From an uncultured delta proteobacterium (lineage in GTDB: Bacteria > Desulfobacterota > Desulfobacteria > Desulfobacterales > JAFDCJ01): a stretch of DNA of 64,000 bases. The position numbers and the translations under genes were made by a program. The notes under the pieces are model-generated. The model saw nothing but the letters and a program-made list of their open reading frames with translations, was not told where the DNA came from and made no database searches. Of this stretch, positions 3,791 to 22,994 are shown in pieces (within the stretch, counting starts at the first letter, position 1; every line of letters begins with the position of its first letter). The DNA lies in contig CAVYNY010000018.1 in the NCBI GenBank assembly GCA_963769935.1, positions 128,001 through 192,000 of the forward strand, read 5' to 3'.

Positions 3791-3807
3791 TTGGCACATC
3801 TCTTGCT
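3791..3807 (+). promoter_or_regulatory. Sigma-54 (-24/-12) promoter
   Basis: TTGGCACATCTCTTGCT matches TGGCAC-N5-TTGC, directly downstream of a sigma-54 activator gene. Confidence 0.85.
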
Positions 3808-3874
3808 GAAAAACCCTGTGCGCAATGCCTCAGTAAGCGCATTTGATTTTAAAGCACACCATTTAGGGGGGGAT

Positions 3875-4264
3875 GTGCGCGTATTATTCTACGCTTCAAT
3901 TAAAACAGCAGGCGCCAATCGCTTGGTTGAATTGGTCAAGATCCTTATACCCGGAAAAAGTCTCGAGATATTTGATTCGATCGATAGCATTTCCGTACGG
4001 CTGCGTTATCCCCGAATAGAGCCGATAATCACGGTTATTCAAGTTGCCAGCCGGCAGGAGCTTACCAACATACTCGGTATGAGTGAGTTGGTGGAGGATA
4101 CGAGCCTTTTTCTTGTTTTGCCCGACCGCAGACCCGATACTGTTTCTCAAGGGTATCGGCTCCGACCGCGGTACATCACTTACCGTGATGCCGACCTTGC
4201 GGCGGGAGCCGCTGTTTTGAAAAAAATGTTTGATAAGATCAATCATTGGTCTGTGAGAGCTTGA
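3875..4264 (+). CDS. Hypothetical protein, possibly a degenerate receiver-like fold
   Basis: GTG start after GGGGGGA; the longer ORF call starts inside the sigma-54 promoter; alpha/beta pattern with LFLVLPD...LRPRYIT. Confidence 0.6.
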   Translation: MRVLFYASIKTAGANRLVELVKILIPGKSLEIFDSIDSISVRLRYPRIEPIITVIQVASRQELTNILGMSELVEDTSLFLVLPDRRPDTVSQGYRLRPRYITYRDADLAAGAAVLKKMFDKINHWSVRA

Positions 4265-4394: not shown

Positions 4395-6122
4395 ATGAAT
4401 GAAGATTCAATACCAAAATCTGTATTGATTGTGGATGATGACAGGGATTTTCTTTTTTGTGTAGAAAATTTCCTCAAAGTCTACACGGACCAAATCGAAG
4501 TATTAATTGCCTCGAACGGCCTGCAAGCCTTGCAAATATTGGAGACCAGAAGAGTGGATCTTCTGGTAACCGATATTAAGATGCCCGAGATGGATGGAAT
4601 AGAATTACTGTCCCGCCTGAGCCTGAAAAATCTGGACATCCATGTCATCGTAACCACCGCCTTTGCCACGAGGGAAAATATAGAGCGGTTGAACAAAGTC
4701 GGTCAATTTTATTACCTGGCGAAGCCATTTAGTCTGGAGAACTTTGGCAAGAAGATTTTAAGTGTTTTAAGAGAAAAATCGGAAGCATCCGCCGGCCAGT
4801 TTACCTTGGCAAATTTACTGCAGTTGCTCCATATGGAACAAAAAACCTGCACACTCCTGGTGAAATCAAACGGGAAAGTCGGCTACCTTTACCTCAGAAA
4901 TGGGGAGTTGATAAATGCGGAGACGAATGGAATCGAGGGCCCGGAGGCAGCAAAAATAATTATTTCCTGGGGGAATGCCCAAACGGAGATTCAGGGAACC
5001 TGTCAAAAAGAAAGAAAAATTCATACGACTATCATGTCCATCCTGCTGGAGGCGACCCGATTTGCCGATGAAAATCGTGCCTCCCTTTTTTACACCGATT
5101 TGCTGGAAAAGGCGATTGAGTTGGCTGAAGGCCGACATTTTAAAGAAGCGAAAGGGATATTATCTCAGCTATTAAAGCACGATAATCGGAATGCTAAAGC
5201 GTGGCTGTGGCTTTCCAGAGTCGCCGAAAGCATAAAGACCATCAAAGTATCATTAACCAACGCGGCCAAGATTGCACCGGAAGATCCTAAAATTGCAGCG
5301 GAGGTCGTAAATTTCAATCGAATCACAAACCAGTTGAAAGAAGGACAGTTTCATCGATGCCCGTTTTGCTGGTTCCCCTTCAAGAAGGGCAGCTACCAGT
5401 GTCCAAATTGTGGGGGCCATTTGACAGTTTATGATCGACTGTTAAAGTCCGCACCGGTTGGAGATAAAAGAATCTTTATAGAAACCGTTGATAGGTTCAG
5501 CAGGGCAATCTGTCGCGAAAAAAACGCTAAGGTGCACTATTATTTGGGCCTGGCGCATCTCAATCTGGCGAACTGGGAGGATGCACTTACCCACCTGGAT
5601 AAATCCGTAAAGCTTGCGCCGACGAATAAATCTTATGCCTATCAATTGCAGACTTTGCTGAACCATATGGCTTCTGCCAAAGCGATCCCGGCCAAAGAGT
5701 TGCGATTTCAACAGAAAGAATCGGATCAACCGCGGGTGCTTCACGAAAGCCCGGTCGAAAGAAAAAAGATCCTGGTCGTCGAAGACAGCTCGACGATACG
5801 CAAAGTCATATCGGTCACCCTAGGTCAAACCGGATATGAGATCATCGAGGCCGGAGACGGACTTGAGGCTCTGAGCAAACTGAATGAATCCAGCCCCGAT
5901 TTAATCCTGCTGGATATAATCTTGCCCAAGATGGACGGTTATAAAATTCTTTCCATCATAAAAGAGAATCCTGATTTTTGCGACATTCCGGTAATCATGC
6001 TGACGAGCAAAGATGGTATTCTCAATAAAGTAAAAGGTAAAATGGCCGGGTCGGCAGCCTATCTGACCAAGCCGTTTGATCCGGCTCAACTTGTTGAGAC
6101 GATTGAGCGGCATCTCAAATAG
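4395..6122 (+). CDS. Multidomain response regulator: REC-DUF4388(PatA_N-like)-TPR-Zn ribbon-TPR-PilG-like REC
   Basis: N-terminal REC (DIKMPEMDG); LANLLQLLHMEQKTCTL...GYLYLRNGELINA; CPFC..CPNC; C-terminal REC with MLTSKDGILNKVKGKMAGSAAYLTKPF resembling PilG. Confidence 0.85.
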   Translation: MNEDSIPKSVLIVDDDRDFLFCVENFLKVYTDQIEVLIASNGLQALQILETRRVDLLVTDIKMPEMDGIELLSRLSLKNLDIHVIVTTAFATRENIERLNKVGQFYYLAKPFSLENFGKKILSVLREKSEASAGQFTLANLLQLLHMEQKTCTLLVKSNGKVGYLYLRNGELINAETNGIEGPEAAKIIISWGNAQTEIQGTCQKERKIHTTIMSILLEATRFADENRASLFYTDLLEKAIELAEGRHFKEAKGILSQLLKHDNRNAKAWLWLSRVAESIKTIKVSLTNAAKIAPEDPKIAAEVVNFNRITNQLKEGQFHRCPFCWFPFKKGSYQCPNCGGHLTVYDRLLKSAPVGDKRIFIETVDRFSRAICREKNAKVHYYLGLAHLNLANWEDALTHLDKSVKLAPTNKSYAYQLQTLLNHMASAKAIPAKELRFQQKESDQPRVLHESPVERKKILVVEDSSTIRKVISVTLGQTGYEIIEAGDGLEALSKLNESSPDLILLDIILPKMDGYKILSIIKENPDFCDIPVIMLTSKDGILNKVKGKMAGSAAYLTKPFDPAQLVETIERHLK

Positions 6123-6141: not shown

Positions 6142-6507
6142 ATGCGTAAATTGAAAGTTTTGGTTGTCGATGACAGCCCTACCGACTTGAAACTGATGAG
6201 TGAACCGTTCATATCGCAGGGGTATGATTTAATTACGGCGAAAGACGGTGAGGAAGCCCTCGAAAGAGCGACGCTCGAGCGACCCGATCTGATTGTGCTC
6301 GACGTCATCATGCCCAAGCTCAATGGGTTCAAAGTCTGTCGCCAGATAAAAAGTTCAGGCAAACTCAAAGACATAAAAATTATCCTGTTAACCAGCAAAA
6401 ACCAGGAAAGTGATAAATTCTGGGGAAAAAAACAGGGAGCCGATGCTTATATGACAAAACCATTCAGCGGTGAGCACTTGCTGGCCATCGCTGAAAAGCT
6501 CTTTTAA
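6142..6507 (+). CDS. pilH: Single-domain response regulator, PilH-like (copy 1)
   Basis: VVDDSPTD, DVIMPKLNGF, QESDKFWGKKQGADAYMTKPF; ATG at 6142 after AAGGAG. Confidence 0.8.
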   Translation: MRKLKVLVVDDSPTDLKLMSEPFISQGYDLITAKDGEEALERATLERPDLIVLDVIMPKLNGFKVCRQIKSSGKLKDIKIILLTSKNQESDKFWGKKQGADAYMTKPFSGEHLLAIAEKLF

Positions 6508-6599: not shown

Positions 6600-7229
6600 A
6601 TGGATATTAGGAACGATTCTGAAGAAAGCATCCGCCGCTGGATTCAAACAGAGCCGGATAACCCCCGGCTGCCGTTAAATAGTTTGATTGCGAAAATTGA
6701 TCGCGAAACCGGAGAAACGGTTTCGCCCGAATCGCTGAATGAAGCCGGTTCGCACAAATCGGAAAGGGCGGGCGACCGCCTGCAACACCAGTTTATTCTT
6801 TTTGCCATGGAGCGTACTCTTTTTGCCCTGCCGCTTTCCAGCGCCCTGGAAATCGGACACCGGCCCGATATTACCCCCCTGCCCAATCTGCCGCATTGGG
6901 TAATGGGTATCAGTAACATCCGGGGGGAGATCATCTCCTTTGTAAATCTGAAAGCTTTTCTGGGAATCCCTTTCACTGGAAAAAAGGGGAACGACCGTTT
7001 CATCATCATCCATAATAAGCGCCTGAAGACCGGAATAATAGTGGACGGCATCCGGGGAATTGTTGTGCTGAACCGAATAGACCATGATATTCAAAACAGC
7101 CCGTACCGACAAGGAGATATCGCCAGGTATATTTTGGGAGTTGCCGTCTCGGGCGAAAACCTGATGAATATTCTGGATATTGACCGGCTGTTATCTTCTC
7201 AGCGAATGAACAGCTTCAAAGCCGATTAG
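6600..7229 (+). CDS. cheW: CheW (PilI-like) scaffold protein
   Basis: ITPLPNLPHWVMGISNIRGEIISFVNL CheW motif. Confidence 0.9.
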   Translation: MDIRNDSEESIRRWIQTEPDNPRLPLNSLIAKIDRETGETVSPESLNEAGSHKSERAGDRLQHQFILFAMERTLFALPLSSALEIGHRPDITPLPNLPHWVMGISNIRGEIISFVNLKAFLGIPFTGKKGNDRFIIIHNKRLKTGIIVDGIRGIVVLNRIDHDIQNSPYRQGDIARYILGVAVSGENLMNILDIDRLLSSQRMNSFKAD

Positions 7230-7299: not shown

Positions 7300-10200
7300 A
7301 TGCCCAAGCCGCCCAAAGCTGAGATGATAAGTGGGTTTATCGAAGAAGTGAAGAGCTATATTCCTTCTTTGATCGATGGATTGGACGCTCTCAGCAAATC
7401 TCCGGACAAAAGCGAGATGCTTGAGGAGACCCATCGCTTGGTACATACCATTAAAGGGGCGGCCTCAATGGTAGGGCTTTCCGGTCTGAGCAACATCGCT
7501 TTTCAGATGGAAGACTACTTGGACGATGTTATTGCGGGAAAGCAGGTCGTTAGCGACCTATCTCTCGCGACCATGCATAAAACCACTGAAAAATTTCAGG
7601 AATATTGCCGCTGTTATCTCAACGGCGGGGTGGCCTCGCGCACCATGTTCAAAGAAACGGTCACTGATTTCGCACGCACCCGTGGCTTGTCATTGGAAGA
7701 AGAAGCAAAGATTCTCAGTGAGCTAACGGAGTCTGTTCCCGAAATTGAAGCACTTGCAACCGAAGGAGAAAATGCACCTGAAACAAGCATTGCGCGCGAC
7801 CCCGCACGGATCAATAGAATCACTTCCGATTCCGGCGATGAGCAGGGTTCCGATACGGACTTCGCATGTGGTGACCGCTTTGCTGAATATCCGATTGAGG
7901 TCGATGAAGTTGTCGGGAAAAACGTTCAACCCGAACCCCACCGGATTGAACTTCCGCCTGAGCTGATGGAAAGCTTTTATGAAGAAGCCGAGGAACACCT
8001 GGAGGATCTGGCGCGTTCGTTGAATATTATGGAATCACAGGCCAAAGAGCCCATTTCCATTTCCGACTCCCTGCGGGAAGAAATTCGCAGGATAAGGCGA
8101 TCGGTCCACACTTTGAAAGGCGCAGCGGCCGTGATGCGGTTTCAGGAATTTGCCGACCGGGCCCATGCGCTTGAGGACCTTCTGGACTGGCTGTACGAAG
8201 AGGCCCGGGAAATCTCACCAGAAATAGTATCGGTGCTGACGGAATCCTCGGATCTGCTGGCAGAGCTGGTAGCAAAGCCATCCATGGCACATTCATCCAA
8301 GGCGAAATCACTCCAAAAAGAATACCAAAAGATTATGGGCCAGGGCCGCGGAGCCGTGGCAACAGACCCCGCTTCGCTTGAGGCTGAGGGCGAACTTGAG
8401 CTCGAAAACGACTTGAACGAAATACTCCAAGCCGAAGCTTATGCCGAAGATGCCGAAGCGCCGATCCCCTCCGTGGACGCTTCCCAATTGGATGAATCCG
8501 CGGACCCGCACCCGCGATTCAACAGGACACTCAGAGTCGATATGGCCCGAATCGACGATCTGGTCAACCTGGCGGGTGAGCTGATCATTGCCGTAAGCGC
8601 CTTCGACCAAAAAATGGAGATCTTCGCCGATTCCACCCATGACCTTGAATTATCCTGCGATCGGCTCAAAAACGTGGCCCGTGATTTAGAAGTCAATTAT
8701 GAAGTCAAGGCGCTTGACCAGCTAAAGACCGTATCTGATTTCTCGACGGATGTCCGGGGAGCGTCGTTGCCCGCCGGCGGGTTTGATGACTTTGATACCC
8801 TCGAGCTGGATCGGTATTCCGAACTCAATCTGATTATTCGAATGATGAATGAAACCGCCGTCGATTTAGGCGCCCTGAACTCTCAATTGACGAATCTCTA
8901 TCGGGAATTTGACGGTCACCTTCTCCGGCAACGCGTCGTACTCAGTGAGCTTCAGGAAAAAATGATGCTGGTTCGCATGACGCCGATGTCGATCATCACC
9001 AGTAAATTGCGCCGGACGGTGCGTGAGGTCGCCGGTAATCTTGGCAAAAGGGTCGCGTTTAGCATCACGGGCGAAAACATTGAACTTGACAGGATGATTT
9101 GGGAAAAACTTACCGACCCCCTTATGCATTTGCTCAGAAATGCCGTCGATCATGGTATTGAACCGCCTGCCGGGAGGGAGTCTTTGCAGAAGTCACCCGT
9201 TGCAACCGTGAAACTAGATGCATTCCGGGAAGGAAACCAGGTTGTCATTCGCATCGCGGACGATGGTGCCGGTCTGAACTTCCAGGCTATCCGGGCGACA
9301 GCCCGCCGGATGCAACTCGCCGATCACCTCGAGGATATTTCCGAGGATGATTTGTCGCGCTTTATCTTCTTCCCCGGTTTCAGCACCCGCGGCCAAATCA
9401 GCTCCATCTCGGGACGCGGGGTCGGAATGGATGTGGTCAAGGAAAATATACAGGATCTGAAAGGCGTCATCCGGGTTGCTTCTGAAAAAGGAAAAGGAAC
9501 CCAATTTACCATTCGCATACCGCTGACGCTGGCGGTGGTGCGAGCCCTGCTGTTCACCGCGGGCGGGCAGAAATTTGCCATTGCTTTAAACGAGATCAGC
9601 GAAATCATCCGGCTGAATCCGGAACATGTCTTAGGGCCCCATCAGGATGCCGTAAGGCTGAAAGACGAAGTCCTGCCGCTTTTTCAAATGGTCGATCTGC
9701 TGAATGGCGGTAAAAGAAAGGCCGAAGCGGTTATGGCTCCGGAATATCCGATTACCTTGGTGATTGAAAGCGGCGGCCGACGGGCGGCCCTGGTTGTTGA
9801 TACCTTGGTCGGTCAACGGGAAATCGTGATCAAAGGCCTGGGGTCGCATCTTCGCTACGTAAAGGGCATATCCGGGGTAACCATTATGGGTGACGGCAGT
9901 GTGGTTCCGATTCTGAACCTGGAAGAATTCTTGTGGTCCCAGACCTCAAATATTGCGGATACTTACCCTGATGCAGCGCTGGATATTAAAAGGCCCCTGA
10001 AAATAATGGTGGTGGATGATTCCATCAGTATCCGGCAGGTCATATCCCGGCTTGTGGCAGATCAGGGGTGGGAGGCCCAAACAGCCAAAGACGGCATCGA
10101 TGCTTTGGAAAAGCTTAGAGAAGGCCGGCCGGATCTGATCGTGCTTGATATCGAAATGCCACGAATGAACGGCTTTGAATTCCTGGGAGCCGTCAAAACC

Positions 10201-10425
10201 GAGTCCGGCTACGAGGACATCCCTGTGGTTATGTTGACCAGCAGGACAAGTGCCAAGCATCGGCAAAAGGCCAAGAGTCTTGGAGCCAGAGGGTTTATCG
10301 TCAAACCATACAAAGATGACGAATTTGTCCGGTTGATCCAAAAATTGACCGGCCGGCCGACGGGAAAAGATAATTCGCAACCGCAAAACGGGTTCGATAA
10401 TTCCAGCGGCCGGAACCAGGCCTAA
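7300..10425 (+). CDS. cheA: Hybrid chemosensory kinase, ChpA-like (2 Hpt-HATPase-CheW-REC)
   Basis: HTIKGAA and HTLKGAA Hpt motifs; FDTLELDRYSEL (Tfp-class signature); HLLRNAVDHG; SGRGVGMDVV; C-terminal REC. Confidence 0.95.
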   Translation: MPKPPKAEMISGFIEEVKSYIPSLIDGLDALSKSPDKSEMLEETHRLVHTIKGAASMVGLSGLSNIAFQMEDYLDDVIAGKQVVSDLSLATMHKTTEKFQEYCRCYLNGGVASRTMFKETVTDFARTRGLSLEEEAKILSELTESVPEIEALATEGENAPETSIARDPARINRITSDSGDEQGSDTDFACGDRFAEYPIEVDEVVGKNVQPEPHRIELPPELMESFYEEAEEHLEDLARSLNIMESQAKEPISISDSLREEIRRIRRSVHTLKGAAAVMRFQEFADRAHALEDLLDWLYEEAREISPEIVSVLTESSDLLAELVAKPSMAHSSKAKSLQKEYQKIMGQGRGAVATDPASLEAEGELELENDLNEILQAEAYAEDAEAPIPSVDASQLDESADPHPRFNRTLRVDMARIDDLVNLAGELIIAVSAFDQKMEIFADSTHDLELSCDRLKNVARDLEVNYEVKALDQLKTVSDFSTDVRGASLPAGGFDDFDTLELDRYSELNLIIRMMNETAVDLGALNSQLTNLYREFDGHLLRQRVVLSELQEKMMLVRMTPMSIITSKLRRTVREVAGNLGKRVAFSITGENIELDRMIWEKLTDPLMHLLRNAVDHGIEPPAGRESLQKSPVATVKLDAFREGNQVVIRIADDGAGLNFQAIRATARRMQLADHLEDISEDDLSRFIFFPGFSTRGQISSISGRGVGMDVVKENIQDLKGVIRVASEKGKGTQFTIRIPLTLAVVRALLFTAGGQKFAIALNEISEIIRLNPEHVLGPHQDAVRLKDEVLPLFQMVDLLNGGKRKAEAVMAPEYPITLVIESGGRRAALVVDTLVGQREIVIKGLGSHLRYVKGISGVTIMGDGSVVPILNLEEFLWSQTSNIADTYPDAALDIKRPLKIMVVDDSISIRQVISRLVADQGWEAQTAKDGIDALEKLREGRPDLIVLDIEMPRMNGFEFLGAVKTESGYEDIPVVMLTSRTSAKHRQKAKSLGARGFIVKPYKDDEFVRLIQKLTGRPTGKDNSQPQNGFDNSSGRNQA

Positions 10426-10561: not shown

Positions 10562-11653
10562 ATGACGGAGATACTGCTTTTCCGGGTGGGTGCCATGCAG
10601 TTCGGCATCGATTTGCCGCTCATCAGCAACATCCATAGCGCCAAGTCTTCGATCGTCCTGCAGAAAGAAGGCGGTGCCCGGCTGTTGCGGACAGAATCGG
10701 GTGAGGAAATGCCGGTTTATGATCTTGCATATCTTTTGAAAGGAGATGGCTTTTCCAATGATTCCGAAGACAAAAAGATAATAATGCTCCAAGTGGATAA
10801 AAATCCGATTGGACTGATCGTCGACCGCGTTGACCAGGTTGTGGCTGTCGACAATGCCGGGTTTGAACCGCTTTCTCCCATTTTTAAGGGTCCTGCGCAG
10901 GCCTGTTTTCCCAGAGTCTTGAAACAAGGGGATTCGCTGGTATTACTCCTGGCCCCGGAGGGAATTGTGAAAACAGCCCAGGCGACAATTGACACGCTTG
11001 AGTCCGGGGACGCGCCGGCAGCAGAGAGCGGCTCAAATGAAATCGAGCAGAACCACCGACGCGCCGACGAACCGGCGGACCGTTCAGCCCACGCATTTAC
11101 GCCGCCGGACGACGGCCGCAGACCGGAAGCCTTTTATTGCGAAGCCGCTCACGGCGCGCCCGAATCGGACATCCCGCCGCCCCCCGCTGAAGCAGTCGAA
11201 CCGGACGAGGATGCCGAGCCATACGGGAAAGCCGCCGTTGAAGGGTATTTGAAAGTTGATGCCCCTTCAATACCCGGAAAAGAAGAACGGATCGAAGAAG
11301 AAGCGACAACTCCAATGAAACAGGCTGAATCCAGCGCTGCCTTTCCCCCGGAGCCGGCCGCTGAGCCGGCCGAGGCGCTCGTGGAAGATAACACCGGTTG
11401 TCCCCACGCGGAAATTTTTCACGAGCGATTCGCCGGCAACCGTCACATAGAAAGCGCTGTAGCTGCCGTGTTGCCGGAAGAACAACTGGCTTCAATAGTG
11501 GAGAGGATTACCCATAAAATCATTCTACAAGCCAAGCCGGCTGAATTGGTCCGCAAAATATTCGCGCAGGCTTTGGAAGGTCTTTTACAGCAAAGTGATG
11601 GCAAACAAGGAAATAATTCAGGGCGGACGGGTGCCCAACCGCCTCTGGAATGA
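10562..11653 (+). CDS. CheW-like domain protein with long acidic Pro/Ala-rich linker and helical C-terminus
   Basis: N-terminal LFRVGAMQFGIDL...IGLIVDRVDQV; about 170 aa of low-complexity E/P/A sequence follows. Confidence 0.75.
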   Translation: MTEILLFRVGAMQFGIDLPLISNIHSAKSSIVLQKEGGARLLRTESGEEMPVYDLAYLLKGDGFSNDSEDKKIIMLQVDKNPIGLIVDRVDQVVAVDNAGFEPLSPIFKGPAQACFPRVLKQGDSLVLLLAPEGIVKTAQATIDTLESGDAPAAESGSNEIEQNHRRADEPADRSAHAFTPPDDGRRPEAFYCEAAHGAPESDIPPPPAEAVEPDEDAEPYGKAAVEGYLKVDAPSIPGKEERIEEEATTPMKQAESSAAFPPEPAAEPAEALVEDNTGCPHAEIFHERFAGNRHIESAVAAVLPEEQLASIVERITHKIILQAKPAELVRKIFAQALEGLLQQSDGKQGNNSGRTGAQPPLE

Positions 11654-11674: not shown

Positions 11675-12169
11675 GTGATGCAGAACAATGCAGACTTTAC
11701 AATGTCACCCGGAAGGGTGCTCATTTTCCCCGCGCAGGTTCCGAGGGTTTCGGACCGCGAGGTTAGCTTTTTATTCAGCCTGCGCCAAATGGAGGATATC
11801 CTGATGGATGCAGCGGTGCGCCCGGTCCCCTTCTCCCCGCCATACGTCGAGGGCATCGCCCAATGGCGCAACCGGGTGCTGCCGGTGGTTTCGCTGGAGA
11901 AGTGTTTGGGGATGGCATCACTGGCCGCGCGCCAGCATCAACGGCTGATGGTAGTCCGGGCGCCAAATAATGATTCCGCGCAGGCAGGTGCGAATCGAAT
12001 CATGCTGCGGGTGGTACCCCCAATCCGAATGCTGACACTTCCGATTGACTGCTCGCCTGCCTCCGACGCCTGGATTTCCCAACCAAATCTGACAAGAGGC
12101 GTCTATGAGTGGCAGAACGGATTTCTCGTGGTGGCCCACCTGGAACATATCATCCAGGGGGAAAATTGA
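11675..12169 (+). CDS. CheW-like protein
   Basis: VRPVPFSPPYVEGIAQWRNRVLPVVSL CheW motif. Confidence 0.8.
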   Translation: MMQNNADFTMSPGRVLIFPAQVPRVSDREVSFLFSLRQMEDILMDAAVRPVPFSPPYVEGIAQWRNRVLPVVSLEKCLGMASLAARQHQRLMVVRAPNNDSAQAGANRIMLRVVPPIRMLTLPIDCSPASDAWISQPNLTRGVYEWQNGFLVVAHLEHIIQGEN

Positions 12170-12187: not shown

Positions 12188-13474
12188 ATGAATCAAAAGT
12201 CAACCTTGGAAAACGGTATAAGAGTGGTTACGGAATCCATGGCGGGGCATCGCTCCATTTCAATGGGCATCCTGATTGACGCCGGCCCCCGTGATGAAGC
12301 GCCGGACCAATGCGGGCTGGCCCATCTGGTTGAGCACGTAATGTTTTGCGGCACCAGCAGCCGCAATGCAAGTCAGATCGCCCGTTTCATGGACGAAGCC
12401 GGGGGCCATATGGGTGCTTTCACTGCCAGAGATTATACCTGCTACTCCGCCTCGGTGTTGGATGAATATTTCACCTACGCGCTCGACCTTCTGGGTGACA
12501 TTCTTCTGAACTCCATATTTCCTCCCGACAACCTCGCGCGGGAAAAAAGCGCCATTTTGCGGGAGATGGAATGCGCCGGCGATGTGCCTTCCCAGCAGGC
12601 GCACGATTTTTTAAAGGCATTTGCCTGGCCTGATCACTACCTGGGCCGTCCCATCGCCGGCCGGACGGAAACGATCAATTCCTTGACCAGGGAAGATGTG
12701 ATCTATTTTGTGTATGAACACTATTTACCGGACCGGTTGATCGTGGCGGCCGCAGGCAATGTCGATCACCACGATTTTGTAGCCCAGGTGCGCGACGCCT
12801 TCTGGCGCATGATCGGCAAAAGCCTGCCGGCAGCCGCCGCATTGCCGGCCCACCGGGCAGGCGTGATGCTGGTACACAGGCCGGTCTCGCTGGTCTACTT
12901 TTCCCTGGGTATCCGGGCCTGTGCATACGCCCATCCGGATCGTTATAAATTACATATGCTCAATAACATTCTAGGCGGAGGTATTAGTTCACGGCTGCAC
13001 CGCCGTCTAAGGGAAAAGCGGGGACTCGTTTATCACATCGGCTCTGAATATCATGCCTATCGCGATGACGGGATGCTGGTTATTGAAGGCAGCACGGTGC
13101 CGGAAAATGTCCAGCCGGTCATAAGCCTGGTTGTTGATGAAATTCGGAAACTGATATCTGCAGATGAGCCGGTGGCCGAAGAAGAACTCTGGAAAGCGAA
13201 AATGCAAATCCGCGGACAGCATCTCATCTCCGGTGAAAATACCAATACCCGTATGAGCCGGTTGGCGGTTCAGGAGCTCTATTTCGGAAGGCAGTTGCCG
13301 GAGGACGAAATCCTGGCTGAAATAGACGCCATTCAGGTCGAAAAGCTGCAATCACTGGCCGACGAGGTTTTAAGGGCTGCGCTCAATCGCGCGACGATCG
13401 CAGTTGTCGGACCGGAGGCGCCGGATCACTATCAGAAATCAGCCATTGAAGGACTGTTGGGTGATCCGCATTAA
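12188..13474 (+). CDS. M16 (pitrilysin/insulinase) family zinc peptidase
   Basis: TLENGIRVVTE start, GLAHLVEH inverzincin motif, AFT, distal Glu in ILREM, LGGGISSRL..REKRGLVY. Confidence 0.95.
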   Translation: MNQKSTLENGIRVVTESMAGHRSISMGILIDAGPRDEAPDQCGLAHLVEHVMFCGTSSRNASQIARFMDEAGGHMGAFTARDYTCYSASVLDEYFTYALDLLGDILLNSIFPPDNLAREKSAILREMECAGDVPSQQAHDFLKAFAWPDHYLGRPIAGRTETINSLTREDVIYFVYEHYLPDRLIVAAAGNVDHHDFVAQVRDAFWRMIGKSLPAAAALPAHRAGVMLVHRPVSLVYFSLGIRACAYAHPDRYKLHMLNNILGGGISSRLHRRLREKRGLVYHIGSEYHAYRDDGMLVIEGSTVPENVQPVISLVVDEIRKLISADEPVAEEELWKAKMQIRGQHLISGENTNTRMSRLAVQELYFGRQLPEDEILAEIDAIQVEKLQSLADEVLRAALNRATIAVVGPEAPDHYQKSAIEGLLGDPH

Positions 13475-13500
13475 AGCGATACAAGAAAGGAGGTGATTCA

Positions 13501-13656
13501 ATGGGCCTTAATCCTGTCGTTAAAAAGAACTGGATCGATATCCAGAAGCAGCACGATGTACCGGTCAATGCCATTGGGGTCAAAATTGGTGCCAAGGACG
13601 AAAAGACCATGAAAGTATGGAAAGAGGAGGGGATTGATCAATTTATAAAACGCTGA
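13501..13656 (+). CDS. Unannotated 51-aa protein MGLNPVVKKNWIDIQKQHDVPVNAIGVKIGAKDEKTMKVWKEEGIDQFIKR
   Basis: Read directly from the sequence; preceded by AGAAAGGAGGTGATTCA; starts 26 bp after the M16 stop, same strand; below the ORF-track cutoff. Confidence 0.85.
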   Translation: MGLNPVVKKNWIDIQKQHDVPVNAIGVKIGAKDEKTMKVWKEEGIDQFIKR

Positions 13657-13834
13657 CTTTTGCAATCAAACCTGGAGGGCCGGCGTGACGACGCGCATAC
13701 CCGGCCCTTCCGTCGCCCGGGGGCTGCGGCAAGCAGTTAATTGGTGGCAGCTGCTTTCCGGTCGGAAATATCTTCATCATTGGGACGGAAGACTTTTCCG
13801 AGCTGAAAGCAGCACTAACAGAAGGAGAGAAACA

Positions 13835-14203
13835 ATGACCGACGCAAAAATTCTGGTGGTTGAAGACAGCCCGACATATCTGCGCCAAATATCAAATTTA
13901 CTGCAAGACAACGGGTTCCAAACCATCACCGCTAAGGATGGAGAAGAAGCGCTGGAAAAAGCTGTCCGGGAAAACCCGAGTGTGATCGTCCTGGACATCA
14001 TCTTGCCCAAAAAAAACGGATTCCAGGTTTGTCGTCAGCTGAAAACTTCACCCGCCACCCAAGAAATTAAAATCCTGATGTTGACCAGCAAATCTCAGGA
14101 CAGCGATCGCTTCTGGGGTCTGAAACAGGGTGCAGACGATTATATGACCAAACCGTTTAAAGATGAAGAACTGCTGCATAACATTGCTAAACTTATTTCA
14201 TGA
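13835..14203 (+). CDS. pilH: Single-domain response regulator, PilH-like (copy 2)
   Basis: VVEDSPTY, DIILPKKNGF, QDSDRFWGLKQGADDYMTKPF; ATG at 13835 after GAAGGAG. Confidence 0.8.
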   Translation: MTDAKILVVEDSPTYLRQISNLLQDNGFQTITAKDGEEALEKAVRENPSVIVLDIILPKKNGFQVCRQLKTSPATQEIKILMLTSKSQDSDRFWGLKQGADDYMTKPFKDEELLHNIAKLIS

Positions 14204-14315: not shown

Positions 14316-16706
14316 ATGATTATCAAGCGAAGGCAGGCCAAAAATCCAAAAACCGCCGAGAAGACCAAGCGTCTGAAAAGATTGTTTAATTTCAATTTGC
14401 CAAACCTGCGGGTGGGCACCAAGCTGCAGGGCGCTATTATCCTGACCGTGGCTTTGGTCCTGGGAATAATCAGCGTAATAATAATAGGATCGTACCAGAG
14501 TTCGATCATCCGCGATAGAAAAAATGTCATGCAATCAAGACTGGATACGATCGCCACGAAAACTGAGATGGAAAACGAACAGGTGGGGTCGATCGTGATG
14601 AACCTGGCGCTGTCCCAGACCAACAGCCATTTTGGTCAAAGAATCAAAGCACTGGAATATTCCAAGGCCCTCCTTCAGAGATTTCCCAATCTTATGAGCG
14701 CCTACATCAACTACGAGCCGAATGCCGATAGCCAGGATGCAAATTACGCCGATCGGGCCCTGTATACCTTGGACGGCAGGTTCTGCCCCTACTGGTACTG
14801 GCAGAACCCGCTGATCAAAGAAGTGCTTCTGCTGATGCCGGCCGAAGAATTGGATACCAGTGAACAGTATAAGGGCGCCAAGGATAAGTGGCAAAAACTG
14901 GTCGGAACCAATGCCGACCCAAAAGAATACCTCTATTTTACCGAACCGTTTGTTAACCAGGAAATTCCGATGATATCGGTCTCATATCCGATTGTTGTCA
15001 ACCGCAAATTCATGGGCGTCGTCGGTGCCGACCGCTCCCTGACGATGTTGACCGAATCGTTGAACTCCTTCAAGCCGTTCTTGAGTGCAGACGTTTTTCT
15101 CTTGAGCCGCAAAGGTGATTTTGTCGCGGCAACCGGAGAATACGTCAAAGCGGGATTGGTCGGGAAAAACCTGAAAGCTGTTCCGGAATTGAAGTCCATT
15201 ATGGAAAAGCACTTCGTTTCAAGAAGCAGGGGCATCATCGAAGTTGCGAAATCTCAAGGCAAGGAAGCCCGCTATGTTGTATTTTCGCCGGTCGGTGTCG
15301 GGGGCTGGATGCTCGCCATGACGGTGGACAAAAGTGAAATCGTGGCACCGGTAAACAGGGTCGTACTCTTAATCGGGGTCATTGCTGCCGTATCGTTTGC
15401 GGTTCTCGCCGGTGTTATCTGGGGTATTTCCCGATTTATCATTGTTCGGCCGATCCGCAGCATTATGAATCTTTTCAGCGAGATCGGGATGGGTAATTTT
15501 GAAGCCCGGGCCGCCGTTGTTACGCAGGATGAGATCGGAGAAATGGCCACCAGTCTCAATGCCATGCTCGACAACACCCTGGTCCTGATTCAAAGCCGGG
15601 AAGAGCGTGATGCCATTCAAGATTCAATCATGAAACTATTAGATGAAATTAGCGGACTGGCGGAAGGTGACCTGACCAGACGGGCGGTTGTGACGGCTGA
15701 AGTAACCGGCGCCATTGCCGACTCCTTTAATACCATGGCGGAACAGCTTAGCGGGGTCGTAAAAAATGTTAAAAAAGCTACTTTAGAAGTTACTTCTGTT
15801 TCACGGGACGCCAACGCCTCAAGCGCACAGCTGGCTAAAGCGAGCGAAGTTCAGGCCAAACAGGTAGCAAAAACGATCGAAGCCATTAACGATATGGCCG
15901 CCTCCATTCGGCAGGTGGCTGACAATGCCGTGCAGTCGGCGACCGTATCCGAACAATCTACCGCCAATGCGAGAGAAGGTTCCGTGGCTGTGCAAAATAC
16001 CAACAAAGCCATGGAGGAAATTCGTAAGAATGTCCAGGAGACGGCACGCTCCATTAAGCGCCTGGGGGAGAGCTCTAAAGAGATCGGAAATATTGTCCAG
16101 CTGATTAACGATATTGCCGATCGGACCTCGATTCTGGCACTAAACGCTTCCATTCAGGCTGCAATGGCGGGTGACGCCGGACGCGGATTCGCGGTAGTTG
16201 CCGAGGAGGTTCAGCGTCTGGCCGAGCGTTCAACCAACGCTACGAAGCAGATCGATACCCTGATAAAAAACATCCAGGGAGAAATCAATGAGGCCGGATC
16301 CAGCATGGAAGAAAGTATCCGGCGGGTTGTGGAAGGCTCCACTCTGGCAAGCAATGCCCATACTAAACTTCAAGAAATCGAATCGGTTTCCAATCAACTG
16401 GCTCAGATAACCCAATCCATTTCCCTGGCAGCAACCCAGCAGGCCAAGTTTTCGGAAAAAATCACGCTGACCATGCAGGAGATGGGCAAGGTCAGCTCCA
16501 AAAACCTTTCCGCAAGCCGGCAGACTACCCAGGCTATCAACCAGCTGACCAAAACTTCAGATGAACTGGCAGCATCGGTCGGCGCCTTCAGGTTGGAGGA
16601 AGAAATAAAATCCCGGAAACCAAAAGAGGCTAAACTGGAAAAAATTAAGCCTGTTACGCCGCATCACCGGGCGGCACCCCAAGGGCAGGCGGAAATTGCC
16701 GTTTAG
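14316..16706 (+). CDS. Methyl-accepting chemotaxis protein, PilJ-like signalling domain with dCache sensor and HAMPs
   Basis: Two TM segments, dCache-like FTEPFVNQ..MISVSYPI, IKRLGESSKEIG, ILALNASIQAAMAGDAGRGFAVVAEEVQRLAERS. Confidence 0.95.
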   Translation: MIIKRRQAKNPKTAEKTKRLKRLFNFNLPNLRVGTKLQGAIILTVALVLGIISVIIIGSYQSSIIRDRKNVMQSRLDTIATKTEMENEQVGSIVMNLALSQTNSHFGQRIKALEYSKALLQRFPNLMSAYINYEPNADSQDANYADRALYTLDGRFCPYWYWQNPLIKEVLLLMPAEELDTSEQYKGAKDKWQKLVGTNADPKEYLYFTEPFVNQEIPMISVSYPIVVNRKFMGVVGADRSLTMLTESLNSFKPFLSADVFLLSRKGDFVAATGEYVKAGLVGKNLKAVPELKSIMEKHFVSRSRGIIEVAKSQGKEARYVVFSPVGVGGWMLAMTVDKSEIVAPVNRVVLLIGVIAAVSFAVLAGVIWGISRFIIVRPIRSIMNLFSEIGMGNFEARAAVVTQDEIGEMATSLNAMLDNTLVLIQSREERDAIQDSIMKLLDEISGLAEGDLTRRAVVTAEVTGAIADSFNTMAEQLSGVVKNVKKATLEVTSVSRDANASSAQLAKASEVQAKQVAKTIEAINDMAASIRQVADNAVQSATVSEQSTANAREGSVAVQNTNKAMEEIRKNVQETARSIKRLGESSKEIGNIVQLINDIADRTSILALNASIQAAMAGDAGRGFAVVAEEVQRLAERSTNATKQIDTLIKNIQGEINEAGSSMEESIRRVVEGSTLASNAHTKLQEIESVSNQLAQITQSISLAATQQAKFSEKITLTMQEMGKVSSKNLSASRQTTQAINQLTKTSDELAASVGAFRLEEEIKSRKPKEAKLEKIKPVTPHHRAAPQGQAEIAV

Positions 16707-17925: not shown

Positions 17926-19083
17926 TCAACCACCGACTTCTTCTTTGACACCCACTGCAATTTTAAACAAAGCGGTCAAAACAAAGAAGCCCAGCGCCCA
18001 GACCCCCAGCGCGATCATAATTTCCGGCGCGGTGGGAATGTAATCGGTGACTTCCTCCAGCGGCGACGGGGTAAACCCCCCGGCGATCATTCCAAAACCC
18101 TTGTCGATCCAGGTTCCCAAAAATATGACCACACAGGCCACCGCCAGGACGCCCTCATTTTTGCGGGTAAGCGGATTTACCGTCAGAATGATGCCCAGAA
18201 CCATCAAGGCCATGGATGACCACATCCAGGGAACATACGCCGTGTGGCCCTGCAAGCCGACAAACAGGTATTTAAGGTGGTCCATGTGCTCGGGGATATT
18301 GCTGTAAAAGGCGACAAACACTTCACACAGAAAGAAAAACACGTTGATGCAAATCGCATAGGCCACGATTTTGGCCAGCGATTGAATTTGTTCCCGCCCC
18401 GGATCAAAACTGCTCACCCGGCGGATAATCAGGCACAGCAAAATCAGCAGGGCCGGGCCGGCTGCAAAAGCAGAGGCCAGAAAGCGCGGCGCCAGAATCG
18501 CGGTCATCCAGAAGCCCCTGCCCGGCAGGCCGCAGTACAGATATGCCGTGACGGTGTGGATGCTGACGGCCCAGGGAATCGATATATAAATCAAAGGCTT
18601 CAGCCAGGCTTGATAGTGGACGCCGTTGCGTTCGGCTTCCAGCACGTTCCAACCGATGACGATGTTTAAAAACAAATAGCCGTTTAAGACGATGGTGTCC
18701 CAGAAAAGCACGGAGTGCAGGGTCGGATAAAGCCAGACATTTAAAATGCGCCTCGGCTGCCCGAGATCGACGACAACAAACGTCAGGCACATGAGAACCG
18801 AGGCAATGGCCAAAAATTCCCCTAAAATCGTTACCTTGCCGAAGGCTTTGTAGTCATGCAGGTAGTAAGGCAATACGACCATAACGCCTCCGGCGGCCAC
18901 CCCGACCAGAAAAGTAAAATTGGCAATATAAAATCCCCAGGAAGTGTTCCGGCTCATGCCGGTGATGCCCAGACCGAAATCGAGCTGCTTGAGGTAGAGG
19001 AGAAAGCCGACGCCGACAATGACCAATAAAAAGGCCATCCACCCATAGTATTTTTTGGTTCCTTTAATCGCTAATTCAAGCAT
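17926..19083 (-). CDS. dsrP: DsrP, NrfD/PsrC-family membrane subunit
   Basis: TGMSRNTSWGFYIANFTFLVGVAAGG, DLGQP, IHTVTA; position in operon. Confidence 0.95.
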   Translation of the reverse strand: MLELAIKGTKKYYGWMAFLLVIVGVGFLLYLKQLDFGLGITGMSRNTSWGFYIANFTFLVGVAAGGVMVVLPYYLHDYKAFGKVTILGEFLAIASVLMCLTFVVVDLGQPRRILNVWLYPTLHSVLFWDTIVLNGYLFLNIVIGWNVLEAERNGVHYQAWLKPLIYISIPWAVSIHTVTAYLYCGLPGRGFWMTAILAPRFLASAFAAGPALLILLCLIIRRVSSFDPGREQIQSLAKIVAYAICINVFFFLCEVFVAFYSNIPEHMDHLKYLFVGLQGHTAYVPWMWSSMALMVLGIILTVNPLTRKNEGVLAVACVVIFLGTWIDKGFGMIAGGFTPSPLEEVTDYIPTAPEIMIALGVWALGFFVLTALFKIAVGVKEEVGG

Positions 19084-19090
19084 AATTACC

Positions 19091-19885
19091 TCACACGATA
19101 TAGTATACGGACGGCTCAGTGCCCAGATTCTGTTTACGCCGAATGGTGTAATTGGTTCGGATGAGTTCCCGCACCTTCGATTCCGGATCGTAAAGATCGC
19201 CGAAAGCGAGCTTTCCCTGCGAAGCTTCTACACAGGCCGGTAATTGACCGACCGCCAGTCGTTCGGCACAGAAATTACATTTTTCGACCACACCTTTGGT
19301 GCGGGTCGGAAATTTGGGATTGATTTCTTTGATAAACGGCCGCGGATCCCGGAAATTAAAGCTGCGGGCCCCGAACGGACAGGCGGCCATGCAAAACCGG
19401 CAGCCGATGCAGCGGTGAAAATCCATCATGACGATCCCGTCGGATTCCCGCTTGAAGGTCGCCTGGGTCGGACAGGCCCGCACACAGGGCGGATTTTCGC
19501 AGTGGTTGCACAGCACCAGAAACGGCTTTTGTTCGACGTCTTCACTTAAGAATTGGCCGCCTGCGCCCGGAAACGCATTGTGGTAATGGGTGCTCCAGAT
19601 CCACTTGATTTCATGGCGTTTGTCTTCAAAGTGAGGAACATTGTGCGTTTTATGGCAGGCTTCAATCAGTGGTTCCAGATCTTCTTCGGTCTCAAATTCC
19701 CGTGTATCTAGGACCATGGCCCATTGCTTGGCCGTTAGGGCGTCCGGGCCTCTCTCGATGATTGCTGCGGTTTTTTCGGCTTGCGCTTCTTCTTTGGCAA
19801 ACGCATTGTAAACGGGCTTGACCGTCAGAGCCAGAGACGAAAGTCCAAGCAACTGCAAAACGCGTCGTCTGCTGATATCCATCAC
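19091..19885 (-). CDS. dsrO: DsrO, periplasmic Fe-S subunit
   Basis: Tat-like SRRRVL; CNHCENPPCVRACP, CIGCRFCMAACP, KCNFC. Confidence 0.95.
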   Translation of the reverse strand: MMDISRRRVLQLLGLSSLALTVKPVYNAFAKEEAQAEKTAAIIERGPDALTAKQWAMVLDTREFETEEDLEPLIEACHKTHNVPHFEDKRHEIKWIWSTHYHNAFPGAGGQFLSEDVEQKPFLVLCNHCENPPCVRACPTQATFKRESDGIVMMDFHRCIGCRFCMAACPFGARSFNFRDPRPFIKEINPKFPTRTKGVVEKCNFCAERLAVGQLPACVEASQGKLAFGDLYDPESKVRELIRTNYTIRRKQNLGTEPSVYYIV

Positions 19886-20271
19886 GATTTCTCCTTCGGG
19901 TTTTCATTATGACAATCCCAGCAATAGGGCCGCACCGAGGCATAATTATGACACCGGTCGCAAAACTCGGCCTTGTTGGAGTGGCAATCCAAACAGGTGT
20001 TGGTCAGACTCATGGTGTATTTCCGGCCGCTGGGACTTACATAAATCCTGTCGCCTTGCCTTACCACCGCTTCCCGCCACAAATCCAGCAGCTGCATATG
20101 CTCGGCTTTCATGTACTCGGTAGAGCGCACGCATACCTTGGCAGCTTTTGCTTTTTCCGTCAGCTGCGGCACCGGTGCGGGAGCGGCTTTTCCCCGGTTG
20201 TACCAGAAGGGGAAGGTCGCGACAACGATGAAAATAATCACTCCGGCAACGATAAGTTTTTTATCCTTCAT
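19882..20271 (-). CDS. dsrJ: DsrJ triheme cytochrome c
   Basis: CLDCH, CDRCH, CWDCH; MKAEHMQLL; ATG at 20271 overlaps the end of dsrK. Confidence 0.95.
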   Translation of the reverse strand: MKDKKLIVAGVIIFIVVATFPFWYNRGKAAPAPVPQLTEKAKAAKVCVRSTEYMKAEHMQLLDLWREAVVRQGDRIYVSPSGRKYTMSLTNTCLDCHSNKAEFCDRCHNYASVRPYCWDCHNENPKEKS

Positions 20272-21907
20272 CAGTTTCTTCCTCCGAATCACCCTCTAAT
20301 CCCGGAATATCTTCGCCACGCAGGTCGGTGGTTCTGTCATTTTGCCCGGTCAGATTCAGGGCATTGGCCACCAGCTCATGCACGCCGGTGACATTCACTT
20401 CGGGCACCCAGTATTCCATCAAGGACGGCAGTGCCGCGCGGTCAATGGCGCAGATGGTCGCCAGCATGTTCACGCCATGTTTTTCGTGTACATATTTGAC
20501 GGCATTGGCCCTGGGCAGTCCGCCGGTCAATCTCAGCTCTATGTCTTCGCCGGCATTCAATCCCGCTCCGCTGCCGCAGCAAAATGTCTGCTCGCGGATG
20601 GTGTTGGCCGGCATTTCATAAAAGTGTTTGCACACATTTTGGATCACATAGCGCGGTTCATCGAACAACCCCATGCCCCGGGCCGGATTGCAGGAGTCAT
20701 GGAAGGTTACTTTGAGATGATCGTTGCGGCTGGGATCCAGATCGAGTTTGCCGTGCTTGATCAAATCAGCGGTAAACTCGGCAATATGCACCATTTTGGT
20801 TGATTTGGCATTTTCGAATTTGGTGCCTGTTATGGGGCTTACCGGCTCTTCCATAAAGTCGGCCGGGCCGTTCATGGTATCCATATACTGGTTGATGACC
20901 CGCCACATGTGGCCGCACTCGCCTCCCAGAATCCACTTGACGCCCAGCCGTTTGGCCTCGGCATACATTTTGGAATTGAGCCGCTTCATGGTTTCGTGGG
21001 AGGTAAAAAATCCGAAGTTTCCGCCTTCGGATGCATACGTACTCCAGGTGATGTCAAAGCCGTATTTTTCCTGCAAAAAATGGAAAAGCATCATATAACC
21101 CATACAGGTGTAAGTGCCGGGATCGGCAAACACGTCCCCGGAAGGGGTAATGAATAAAATATCGGCACCCTTTTTGTTGAATTGCGGTTCCACCCGCACG
21201 CCGGTGATCTCTTCGATGTCATCGACGAAAAAGTCGAGCATGTCTTTAAAGGCATGCGGCTGGATACCCAGATGGTTGCCGGTGCGGTAGCAGTTGGCCA
21301 CCGGCGTCGCAATCCAGTCGATATTCAGACCGAGCAGATTCAACAACTCCCGGCCCATGATGGTAATCTCGGCCGTGTCGATCCCGTAGGGACAGAATAC
21401 CGAGCAGCGCCGGCACTCCGAACACTGGAACAGGTAGTACCACCACTCTTTGAGCACATCCAGCGTCATCGGCCGGGCGCCGTTGATTTTGCCCAGAATC
21501 TTGCCGACCCGGGTAAAATCATTGCGATAAACCGAGCGCAGCAGCTCGGCCCTGACCACCGGCATGTTTTTGGGATCACCGGTCCCGATAAAATAGTGGC
21601 ATTTGTCGGCACAGGCGCCGCAGCGCACACAAATATCCATGAAAACCTTAAACGATCGAAATCGTTCCAGCCGCTCTCTGAAACCGTTGTGGATGATCTC
21701 CTGCCAGTTTTCGGGCAGCTTCCAGTCGTCTTCGACCGGATTCCAGGCTCTGGCATTGGGAAGCCCGACATATTCAACGCTTTTCGGATTCGATGCGTAG
21801 CAGTACATCCCTTTGCGGATGTTGACCGGCGTTTGCATCCAGTCCGTGTTCGGCGGTCGGTGGTCGATCTGGATAAGTTCTTCGGGTTTGGGTATTACGT
21901 CTGCCAT
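20261..21907 (-). CDS. dsrK: DsrK, HdrD-like Fe-S subunit
   Basis: CVRCGACADKC, CSECRRCSVFCP, GGECGH, HDSCN, CCGSG. Confidence 0.97.
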   Translation of the reverse strand: MADVIPKPEELIQIDHRPPNTDWMQTPVNIRKGMYCYASNPKSVEYVGLPNARAWNPVEDDWKLPENWQEIIHNGFRERLERFRSFKVFMDICVRCGACADKCHYFIGTGDPKNMPVVRAELLRSVYRNDFTRVGKILGKINGARPMTLDVLKEWWYYLFQCSECRRCSVFCPYGIDTAEITIMGRELLNLLGLNIDWIATPVANCYRTGNHLGIQPHAFKDMLDFFVDDIEEITGVRVEPQFNKKGADILFITPSGDVFADPGTYTCMGYMMLFHFLQEKYGFDITWSTYASEGGNFGFFTSHETMKRLNSKMYAEAKRLGVKWILGGECGHMWRVINQYMDTMNGPADFMEEPVSPITGTKFENAKSTKMVHIAEFTADLIKHGKLDLDPSRNDHLKVTFHDSCNPARGMGLFDEPRYVIQNVCKHFYEMPANTIREQTFCCGSGAGLNAGEDIELRLTGGLPRANAVKYVHEKHGVNMLATICAIDRAALPSLMEYWVPEVNVTGVHELVANALNLTGQNDRTTDLRGEDIPGLEGDSEEETDEG

Positions 21908-21917
21908 AATTTGCTCC

Positions 21918-22994
21918 TTATTCTTCCGCCGGCGTTTCTTCTTCCGCCGGATCTGCAGCAGGGACTTCCTCGGGCATCTTTACAACAGGCAGCCCGGCCT
22001 CTATCATTTTATCTCTGAATTCATCTTCATATTCTTCGTAAGTGTGGACCGGGACCGGATAATTCCAGGGATTCACGTGCCGGTTGGCCCGGGTGTCCGT
22101 CGTCAGGTTGCGGGTCGGACTCAAAAAGATGCCCCCCAGGTGCATCAATTTGCTGAAGGGGAAGTATGCCAGCAAAGTGCTCACGAATAAAAGATGGATA
22201 TAAAAAACAGCCCCGACCCCTGCGGGAATGGTGGGATGAAAAGTAACCAGCCCCATGGTGAGTTCCTTGGCGGCGGTGACATCGATTTTAGCCACGTAGC
22301 GCATGAGAATGCCGGTCAGCGCAATGCCGAATATCAAAAACAGCGGGAAATAATCGCTGGCCAGGGAGATATATCTGACCTGGCGGATAAAAAGCCGTCT
22401 TGAAAACAGATACGCGGCGGCAGCCAGCAGCACGAAACCGGATAAATAGACCTCCGGCAGGCCGAACTGGATGCTGGGATACAGGATTTCAAATCGGAAA
22501 AAACTGTCCACATTTTCAACCAGGGTGACGAAAAAAGGCACCGGATCCGTAAAAAGCCGCAGGTGGCGTATCAGAACCGTCAGGAAGGCGTAATGGAAGG
22601 CCAATGCCCCCACCCACAAAAAAATCTCCAGCTGATAGGACAATTTCGAGCCTTCCTTTAATCGCATGCGCGTATTGCGAAACAGGGACCGGAAGGTCAA
22701 TATTTCCAGAGCCATGCGTGCAACCACCTGCCATCTGGTGGCGGGGCAGTCCAGCCGGGAATGTTTAATCCAGGGCAGCGATTTCTGCTGGCCGCCGGTG
22801 GTGGGAATTTGAAAAGGGACTGCCGAACGCGACCAACCGACGACTTTGTAGGCAAAACCCACCAGGAATGTGAGCAATGCCAGGTAAGGAATGATAATTC
22901 CGAAAACAACCTGCAGTCCTATCGCCGTACCCGCCCACGCAATTAAAAAAAGCACGATAACCGCAATGAGTGAAAACATGTACCTTGCATTCAT
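21918..22994 (-). CDS. dsrM: DsrM, NarI-like cytochrome b subunit
   Basis: IPTTGGQQKSL, FRSLFRN, YFPFSKLMHLGG..SPTRN; ATG at 22994 after GAGG. Confidence 0.95.
   Translation of the reverse strand: MNARYMFSLIAVIVLFLIAWAGTAIGLQVVFGIIIPYLALLTFLVGFAYKVVGWSRSAVPFQIPTTGGQQKSLPWIKHSRLDCPATRWQVVARMALEILTFRSLFRNTRMRLKEGSKLSYQLEIFLWVGALAFHYAFLTVLIRHLRLFTDPVPFFVTLVENVDSFFRFEILYPSIQFGLPEVYLSGFVLLAAAAYLFSRRLFIRQVRYISLASDYFPLFLIFGIALTGILMRYVAKIDVTAAKELTMGLVTFHPTIPAGVGAVFYIHLLFVSTLLAYFPFSKLMHLGGIFLSPTRNLTTDTRANRHVNPWNYPVPVHTYEEYEDEFRDKMIEAGLPVVKMPEEVPAADPAEEETPAEE

Follow-up and report, generated by a model that had tools for sequence, protein, structure and literature searches.

A conserved 51-residue microprotein, with a dedicated M16B peptidase as an optional neighbor, in chemosensory gene clusters of Desulfobacterota and other bacteria

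The 51-amino acid microprotein encoded at positions 13501..13656 (+) of the DNA stretch analyzed here (64,000 nucleotides from an uncultured delta proteobacterium, hereafter the window) represents a real, undescribed protein family and, with the M16 peptidase encoded directly upstream, an accessory module on a known kind of chemosensory pathway. That the open reading frame is a gene is virtually certain, and the microprotein is very probably a functional part of this pathway. Given that chemosensory pathways are among the best-catalogued signaling systems of bacteria, a conserved accessory protein that belongs to no family and shows no recognized fold is unexpected. The microprotein also exemplifies the class of genes that are dropped from annotation by length cut-offs.

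The gene (ATG at 13501, TGA at 13654-13656) starts 26 nt past the stop codon of the gene for a 428-aa M16 peptidase, and a gene for a single-domain response regulator begins 181 nt downstream. The start codon is preceded by an extended Shine-Dalgarno (SD) site, AGAAAGGAGGTGATTCA (13484..13500, +), recognized by its complementarity to the 3′ end of the 16S rRNA of the same genome; positions 13484-13497 are a 14-nt perfect complement of that tail. Across 4035 long ORFs, the longest anti-SD match ahead of the first ATG is 11 nt, a crude comparison because it takes the first ATG as the start, and among the eight AAAGGAGGTGAT sites of the genome, only that of the microprotein gene is followed by an ATG. 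The coordinates, the translation and the near-perfect ribosome-binding site that the preliminary description had reported from the sequence alone are all as described. Very long SD sites do not necessarily speed translation, and therefore the extended site is a hint about the expression level rather than a measurement. The window gene has no sigma-70-like site ahead of it, searches of the upstream DNA of 18 loci and of three spacers of the window revealed no sigma-54 motif, and Rfam gave no match in the window, the spacer at 13650-13840 included.

Metatranscriptome contigs from sediment (a single study) that derive from a close strain cover the microprotein gene in three of the four runs, and one of them spans both the M16 and the microprotein genes. 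Such contigs give neither expression level nor strand; their depth over the microprotein gene is about the same as over its cluster neighbors and lower than over dsrMKJOP, although these depths cannot rank genes. The suggestion in the preliminary description that the protein is highly translated retains the SD signals in its favor but gains nothing from the RNA contigs, in which the gene shows no excess over its neighbors.

A protein search retrieved 93 relatives of the microprotein with 65-88% identity, nearly all of 51 aa and either unnamed or labeled ‘hypothetical protein’ (e.g., D1BOALGB6SA_2459), so that the gene is unannotated locally but not in the other genomes that list it. A scan of GTDB genomes identified 33 loci which, by record title, belong to Desulfobacterota, Chloroflexota, Acidobacteriota, Planctomycetota and two ‘Clostridia’ MAGs, and the best 80 of the 173 matches confirmed in a metagenome scan were retained. 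Cultured carriers include Desulfoluna species and Desulfonema magnum; the microprotein and the M16B peptidase are both small soluble proteins, and both are found in cultured organisms. No relatives were found in viral contigs or in plasmids. The patchy distribution suggests horizontal transfer; the peptide tree is mostly unresolved, as is the backbone of the M16 tree.

Among 110 distinct microprotein genes, the ATG is at the same place in 108, the product is 51 aa long in 96, and 96 are preceded by an SD core (GGAG/GAGG/AGGA); one of the 110 is a misplaced fragment (L085) and was left out of the later counts. In the resulting set of 109 genes, pN is lower than pS in all 108 comparisons with the window gene, the summed dN/dS over 163 unsaturated pairs is 0.116, and the variation falls mostly on third positions (non-majority fractions of 0.147, 0.072 and 0.464 for codon positions 1, 2 and 3, respectively). 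The homolog search and the dN/dS estimate (about 0.12) that the preliminary description had proposed accordingly agree: the frame is conserved and the microprotein is under purifying selection. Across 45 loci, its mean p-distance (0.265) is lower than that of the PilH-like regulator (0.364), the chemoreceptor (MCP; 0.405) and M16 (0.455). The chain is conserved throughout, its invariant residues being spread between W11 and E43 (positions 11-43), and has the core motif W-x3-Q-x5-P-V-[ND]-x2-G-x2-I-x10-W-x3-G. An exhaustive profile search returned 82 matches at E <= 0.001, a few of which are WD40 or other repeat noise; the divergent members keep W11, Q15, P21, V22, G26, I29, W40 and G44, and one divergent subfamily is acidic. 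A WD40 identity was rejected because a short ‘D-x-T-x-K-V-W’ stretch, its scores added up across repeats, accounts for the matches, and the longer homologs were rejected as true longer forms, being upstream extensions or a chimera.

The microprotein (5.9 kDa, pI 9.5) contains 9 Lys, 2 Trp and no Cys, in keeping with the Lys-rich composition given in the preliminary description, and the lysines K8, K9, K16, K28, K32, K38 and K50 are conserved in the alignment; the net charge is +2 to +5 in 78 of 100 distinct microproteins. The AlphaFold2 model is a confident compact domain (mean pLDDT 88.6), a predicted helix-loop-helix-helix mini-domain with helices at 5-16, 34-42 and 45-48. The protein had been called soluble, with neither a transmembrane segment nor a signal peptide, and inspection of the sequence together with this soluble model, rather than a dedicated predictor, leads to the same judgment. 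No family had been recognized either, and none of the catalogued families in Pfam, NCBIfam and PHROGs matches the microprotein (P0001); nor is there sequence similarity to the inactivating factors IF7/IF17 or to DUF4278. Fold searches against PDB and BFVD gave no match above noise (best Foldseek E of 6.2 and 2.9; best VIA-align Z of 2.6 at rmsd 3.2 over 42 aligned residues), searches that have little power with a 51-residue model, and the matches in the ESM Atlas, all scoring <0.9, are Rossmann fragments and hypothetical clusters. The absence of fold matches does not establish a new fold.

The microprotein gene lies within a cluster of genes that are all on the + strand. These encode, in order, a PilG/PatA-like response regulator with the architecture REC-DUF4388(PATAN)-TPR-REC (4395..6122), a single-domain PilH-like regulator (6145..6507), CheW (6600..7229), CheA (7300..10425), a second CheW with a long acidic C-terminal tail of charge -29 (10562..11653), a third CheW (11675..12169), the M16B zinc peptidase (12188..13474), the microprotein, another single-domain PilH-like regulator (13838..14203) and a chemoreceptor with a Cache-type sensor, HAMP and MCP signaling domains (14316..16706). 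CheR and CheB are absent from the cluster. Loci of Chloroflexota and Acidobacteriota are arranged as M16, microprotein, TPR-REC, DUF4388, REC, (ParA), CheW, MCP, CheR, CheA. A ParA/MinD-type ATPase gene lies between the REC and CheW genes in L026 (10705-11457) and other Chloroflexota loci. Planctomycete loci (L032/L033, 8229-11382) end after CheW; of three genomes searched, two hold the matching MCP on other contigs and one holds the matching CheA.

The window CheA (net charge -51) has two Hpt stretches and a REC domain at 902-1013, with no match for P2, and the cluster encodes two CheY-type regulators, one with PATAN/DUF4388, all of which are features of the Tfp class. Receptors of 40 heptads are another feature of that class, and the C-terminal arm of the window receptor (141 aa, ~20 heptads) fits the 40-heptad class. 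By these domain features, the cluster is assigned to the Tfp-class architecture (PilGHIJ/ChpA-like), with the proviso that the CheA traits, namely several Hpt domains, a C-terminal REC and no P2, are common to ACF-class CheAs as described in part of PMC10782961. The resemblance to Pseudomonas Pil-Chp and the cyanobacterial Tax/Pix (PatA-type) systems, as far as the consulted portions of the sources describe them, lies in the two CheY-type regulators, one linked to PATAN/DUF4388, in CheW and MCP and in a CheA that combines several Hpt domains with a C-terminal REC (PMC10782961; bioRxiv 10.1101/2021.06.11.447907), and the Chloroflexota and Acidobacteriota loci additionally run REC, REC, CheW, MCP, CheR, CheA. 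Unlike these systems, for which the literature searched reports no accessory protein of 51 aa and no M16 peptidase, the window cluster is rearranged and has no CheR or CheB, and the output of the carriers is not uniformly a PilB-type pilus. With regard to control of type IVa pili, the genome of the window contains two PilT-family matches over the cut-off, and PilB-type matches were found in 15 of 20 genomes; however, neither a PilB-type ATPase (E 1e-100) nor flagellin was found in five Chloroflexota carriers (MAGs), so no single motor is common to all carriers.

Two samples of genomes, 401 from the phylum and 151 from the order, with one genome (G000) in both, reveal which neighbor the microprotein follows; many of these genomes are fragmented, and with related genomes and physically linked genes, the counts are not independent. 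In the phylum sample, the MCP clade of the cluster is found in nine genomes, the microprotein in five, all among the nine, and the M16 clade in two, both among the five. In the order sample, the receptor clade is present in 20 genomes and the microprotein in 16 (15 of them with the receptor), and all six genomes with the M16 clade also carry the microprotein. The only carrier without the receptor clade is G737, where the microprotein gene is next to a REC gene at a contig end. The microprotein, then, depends on this pathway clade, and the peptidase occurs only where the microprotein does. The nested counts tie the microprotein to the pathway and depict the peptidase as an add-on that is never seen without the microprotein; together with the cluster context, they bear out the attribution of the protein to the chemosensory unit that had been made in the preliminary description. 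Conversely, 4 of 9 and 5 of 20 receptor-clade genomes, some of them fragmented, gave no microprotein match, and in four receptor-clade genomes examined closely, neither it nor the M16 clade was detected; the pathway can operate in the absence of both.

Ten of the 16 carriers in the order sample and 3 of the 5 in the phylum sample yielded no member of the M16 clade. In several cases, its loss is real: there is no member of the clade in G016 (one contig, 99% complete), G190 or G141, and in G724 and G770 the order is CheW-microprotein-REC/MCP, with no M16 remnant. At six M16-less loci, the pN of the microprotein is 0.11-0.27 against a pS of 0.61-1.15, which indicates that it is under purifying selection without M16. 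Regulation of the peptidase, one of the functions suggested in the preliminary description, cannot therefore be its sole role, whereas the role of a substrate is plausible because the M16 clade was never found without the microprotein.

The peptidase itself contains the H46-x-x-E49-H50 motif, E126 and the R275/Y282 pair, all invariant in 69 of 69 sequences. The HxxEH motif, the distal Glu, the R/Y pair and a single chain of ~50 kDa are what defines M16B in the consulted portion of PMC12731061. The closest solved relative (E 1e-75) is PDB 3hdi, BHP (BH2405/YmxG) of Bacillus halodurans, which has the same H46/E49/H50/E126 numbering; BHP has no known physiological substrate according to the part of PMC12731061 consulted, and the window M16B belongs to a separate clade. 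Members of this clade are 45-74% identical to each other and 34% identical to the generic M16B of the genome, so that the dedicated M16B, an optional partner of the microprotein, forms a clade apart. Peptidasomes of M16A/C take substrates of 30-70 residues, and prokaryotic M16B were suggested to work likewise, their physiological substrates in bacteria being poorly defined (PMC12731061, in part). Clearance by M16B fits the microprotein because its 51 residues are within the range for M16A/C. Prediction of the complex of an M16 dimer with the microprotein scored 0.01, which is informative neither way. That the microprotein would be a substrate of M16B is a possibility to which we give slightly less than even odds.

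We propose that the microprotein would act in trans by binding a pathway protein, a direct contact that we consider somewhat more probable than its absence. The candidates would be the acidic CheA, the CheW scaffold or a receiver domain, contacted through the conserved Lys-rich surface; the conserved lysines, on one side, and the charges of CheA (-51) and of the CheW tail (-29), on the other, suggest where the microprotein may bind. The amount of the microprotein would set the gain or timing of the pathway, and M16B, where present, would enclose and degrade it, serving as an off-switch comparable to the removal of IF7 by Prp1/Prp2. The complete chain, that of a concentration-dependent modulator that acts in trans and is probably cleared by M16B where the latter is kept, falls just short of being probable in our estimate. 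A stricter version, in which an undescribed mini-domain, possibly of a new fold, is dedicated to pathways of this class, controls signaling through its concentration and has an encapsulating M16B of its own as the off-switch, is rather unlikely as a whole. If it is true, the pathway would possess a proteolytic adaptation or reset beside methylation by CheR/CheB, and the microprotein would rank among the few physiological substrates of bacterial M16B homodimers.

Prp1 and Prp2 are peptidases of family M16. In Synechocystis, IF7 (GifA) is a small regulator that acts by protein-protein contact and is apparently removed by the metalloprotease Prp1/Prp2, as outlined in the consulted part of PMC6316151. 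The two systems share a small protein regulator and a metalloprotease, which is an analogy only: IF7 targets glutamine synthetase and has no sequence family match to the microprotein, whereas here a single, genetically linked peptidase gene is involved and the microprotein is predicted to be folded. Neither a description of the module nor any association of M16 with chemosensory or chemotaxis systems was found in the literature searched, which mostly excluded subscription papers and supplements (a proteomics table could list the protein), and the microprotein family is not mentioned in the consulted portion of PMC6390638.

The genes for the microprotein have been repeatedly duplicated and relocated as stand-alone genes. 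Tandem pairs are present at 10 of 122 loci. In G404, a MAG with >1,300 contigs in which mixed strains could account for some of the matches, there are eight on seven contigs, one after M16 and the others alone or paired; the copies away from M16 have a common upstream promoter-like element, and most end in terminator-like hairpins. None of 250 other genomes of the G404 phylum carries the microprotein, so it is rare in that phylum. G405 has three matches, two after M16 and one elsewhere, and the single copies of G688 and G785 are located away from the cluster, the latter behind a gene resembling the PAS/sigma-54 activator found ahead of the G752 cluster. At four loci (L002, L005, L006 and L008), an AT-rich gap of 480-650 nt with a common sigma-70-like element immediately precedes the microprotein gene, and in L002, M16 is divergently oriented. 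Homologs unlinked to M16 or che genes, which were to count against a role in the chemosensory unit, thus exist as stand-alone copies; nevertheless, the genomes with such copies that could be searched also held the pathway receptor. The tandem and stand-alone copies with their own promoter-like and terminator-like sites point to action in trans and to selection on dose.

The stand-alone, multi-copy genes with strong translation signals would also suit an abundant protein that has an output or structural role and is regulated together with the pathway, such as a polarity or localization tag of the motility machinery or a small nucleic-acid binder, which M16B would recycle. The conserved surface lysines and the positive net charge of 78 of 100 distinct proteins fit this explanation, as do the PATAN proteins of the cluster, given that PATAN domains bind the pilus motor in Synechocystis (bioRxiv 10.1101/2021.06.11.447907, in part), and the small-GTPase or roadblock genes next to some loci. 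Rare fusions of the mini-domain could be taken in the same sense: to Smr (P0124), FHA (P0161) and a membrane-anchored SLT-like protein (P0172, E 0.015), or, via a Pro/Ala-rich linker, to a C-terminal YRG motif (P0122, P0126, P0133, P0146 and P0162, an architecture that recurs) that resembles DUF4278 (P0126 tail at E 0.021, under the cut-off); the tail of P0153 does not align with the DUF4388 protein. However, each fusion looked up belongs to a cluster of one or two sequences, and most are single metagenomic proteins, which could be assembly or frameshift artefacts and are leads only. Moreover, no DNA-binding fold matches the model above noise (best Z 2.6), one divergent subfamily is acidic, and the five Chloroflexota carriers with neither a PilB-type ATPase nor flagellin argue against a common motor. 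We regard an output protein as rather unlikely.

A closer association with the peptidase, in which the microprotein is mainly an inhibitor, adaptor or subunit of M16B, would be in line with gene order: M16 lies directly upstream of the microprotein at 79 of 93 loci by script (80 after correction of L054), and the M16 clade always turned up together with it. The 93 are those of 108 distinct loci with enough upstream DNA, and having been fetched by likeness to the window, they are biased to its relatives. Where the two genes are apart, M16 is ~13 kb (G749) or ~11 kb (G799) away or on another contig (G695). Distances between the microproteins correlate with those between the M16 proteins (partial rho 0.43, vs. 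0.12 for MCP), which adjacency alone could explain. The purifying selection on the microprotein where the M16 clade was not found, as in G016 and 10 of 16 carriers of the order sample, makes this explanation improbable.

The proximity of a short ORF to genes for an M16B and a Cache-type receptor also brings to mind the precursor of a peptide signal or RiPP that is matured by M16B and sensed by the receptor of the cluster, since M16B enzymes mature the PQQ and subtilosin precursors (PMC12731061, in part). Unlike PqqA with PqqF and the subtilosin precursor with AlbF/AlbE, which likewise pair a short ORF with an M16B peptidase, no modifying enzymes were seen here, there is no split into leader and core, and the peptidase is dispensable. 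Whole-chain conservation from W11 to E43, the confident globular model, the lack of a signal peptide in the sequence and the retention of the microprotein without M16 render a precursor very improbable; nor was a conserved modifying enzyme or exporter seen among the annotated part of the neighbors.

Immediately 3′ of the stop codon, at 13674..13710 (+), is a 10-bp stem-loop recognized by folding and covariation; in 15 related loci, 94% of the cells are paired and four of the ten pairs are changed on both sides, the loci having been chosen by eye so that the shuffle figures are not probabilities. It is likely an mRNA-stabilizing or terminating hairpin. A 3′ hairpin (z < -2) follows 41 of 107 microprotein genes vs. 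17 of 148 other cluster genes. Two further stem-loops are found at 13716-13810 (+), and the whole spacer at 13650-13840 has z = -4.0. Despite the very strong SD site, the hairpins directly downstream and the position of the microprotein as the first cluster gene in several lineages, it is scarcely tenable that the microprotein is a leader peptide acting in cis, its translation controlling the chemosensory genes that follow. The gene next in line differs among loci (REC, TPR-REC, MCP or none), terminator-like hairpins close the stand-alone copies, G688 and G785 have their only copy outside the cluster, and there are tandem copies and a folded core. The modulator acting in trans on the pathway is thus the reading that we prefer.

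Several genes adjacent to the clusters deserve mention. In the window, the cluster is preceded (2224-4264, +) by an NtrC-like regulator gene and by a 157-aa ORF that matches neither Pfam nor NCBIfam; homologs of both are directly upstream of the divergent microprotein gene of G737 (L165), and the 157-aa protein may be another unnamed component of the cluster. Genes for a small GTPase, which we take to be MglA-like, and for roadblock, DUF4388 and protoglobin proteins adjoin some clusters (L040, 4526-7147; L111, 4261-6033; L116, 5070-6671), the GTPase of L116 giving an Arf match; these neighbors hint at control of cell polarity. Downstream of the window cluster, at 17926-23030 (-), is a complete dsrMKJOP operon, which is well covered in the metatranscriptome contigs and implies that the host is likely a sulfate reducer. 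Beyond it, at 24240-25801 (-), a gene for a REC-phosphatase-like protein lies beside a STAS-like gene, the two probably forming a partner-switching module near the cluster.
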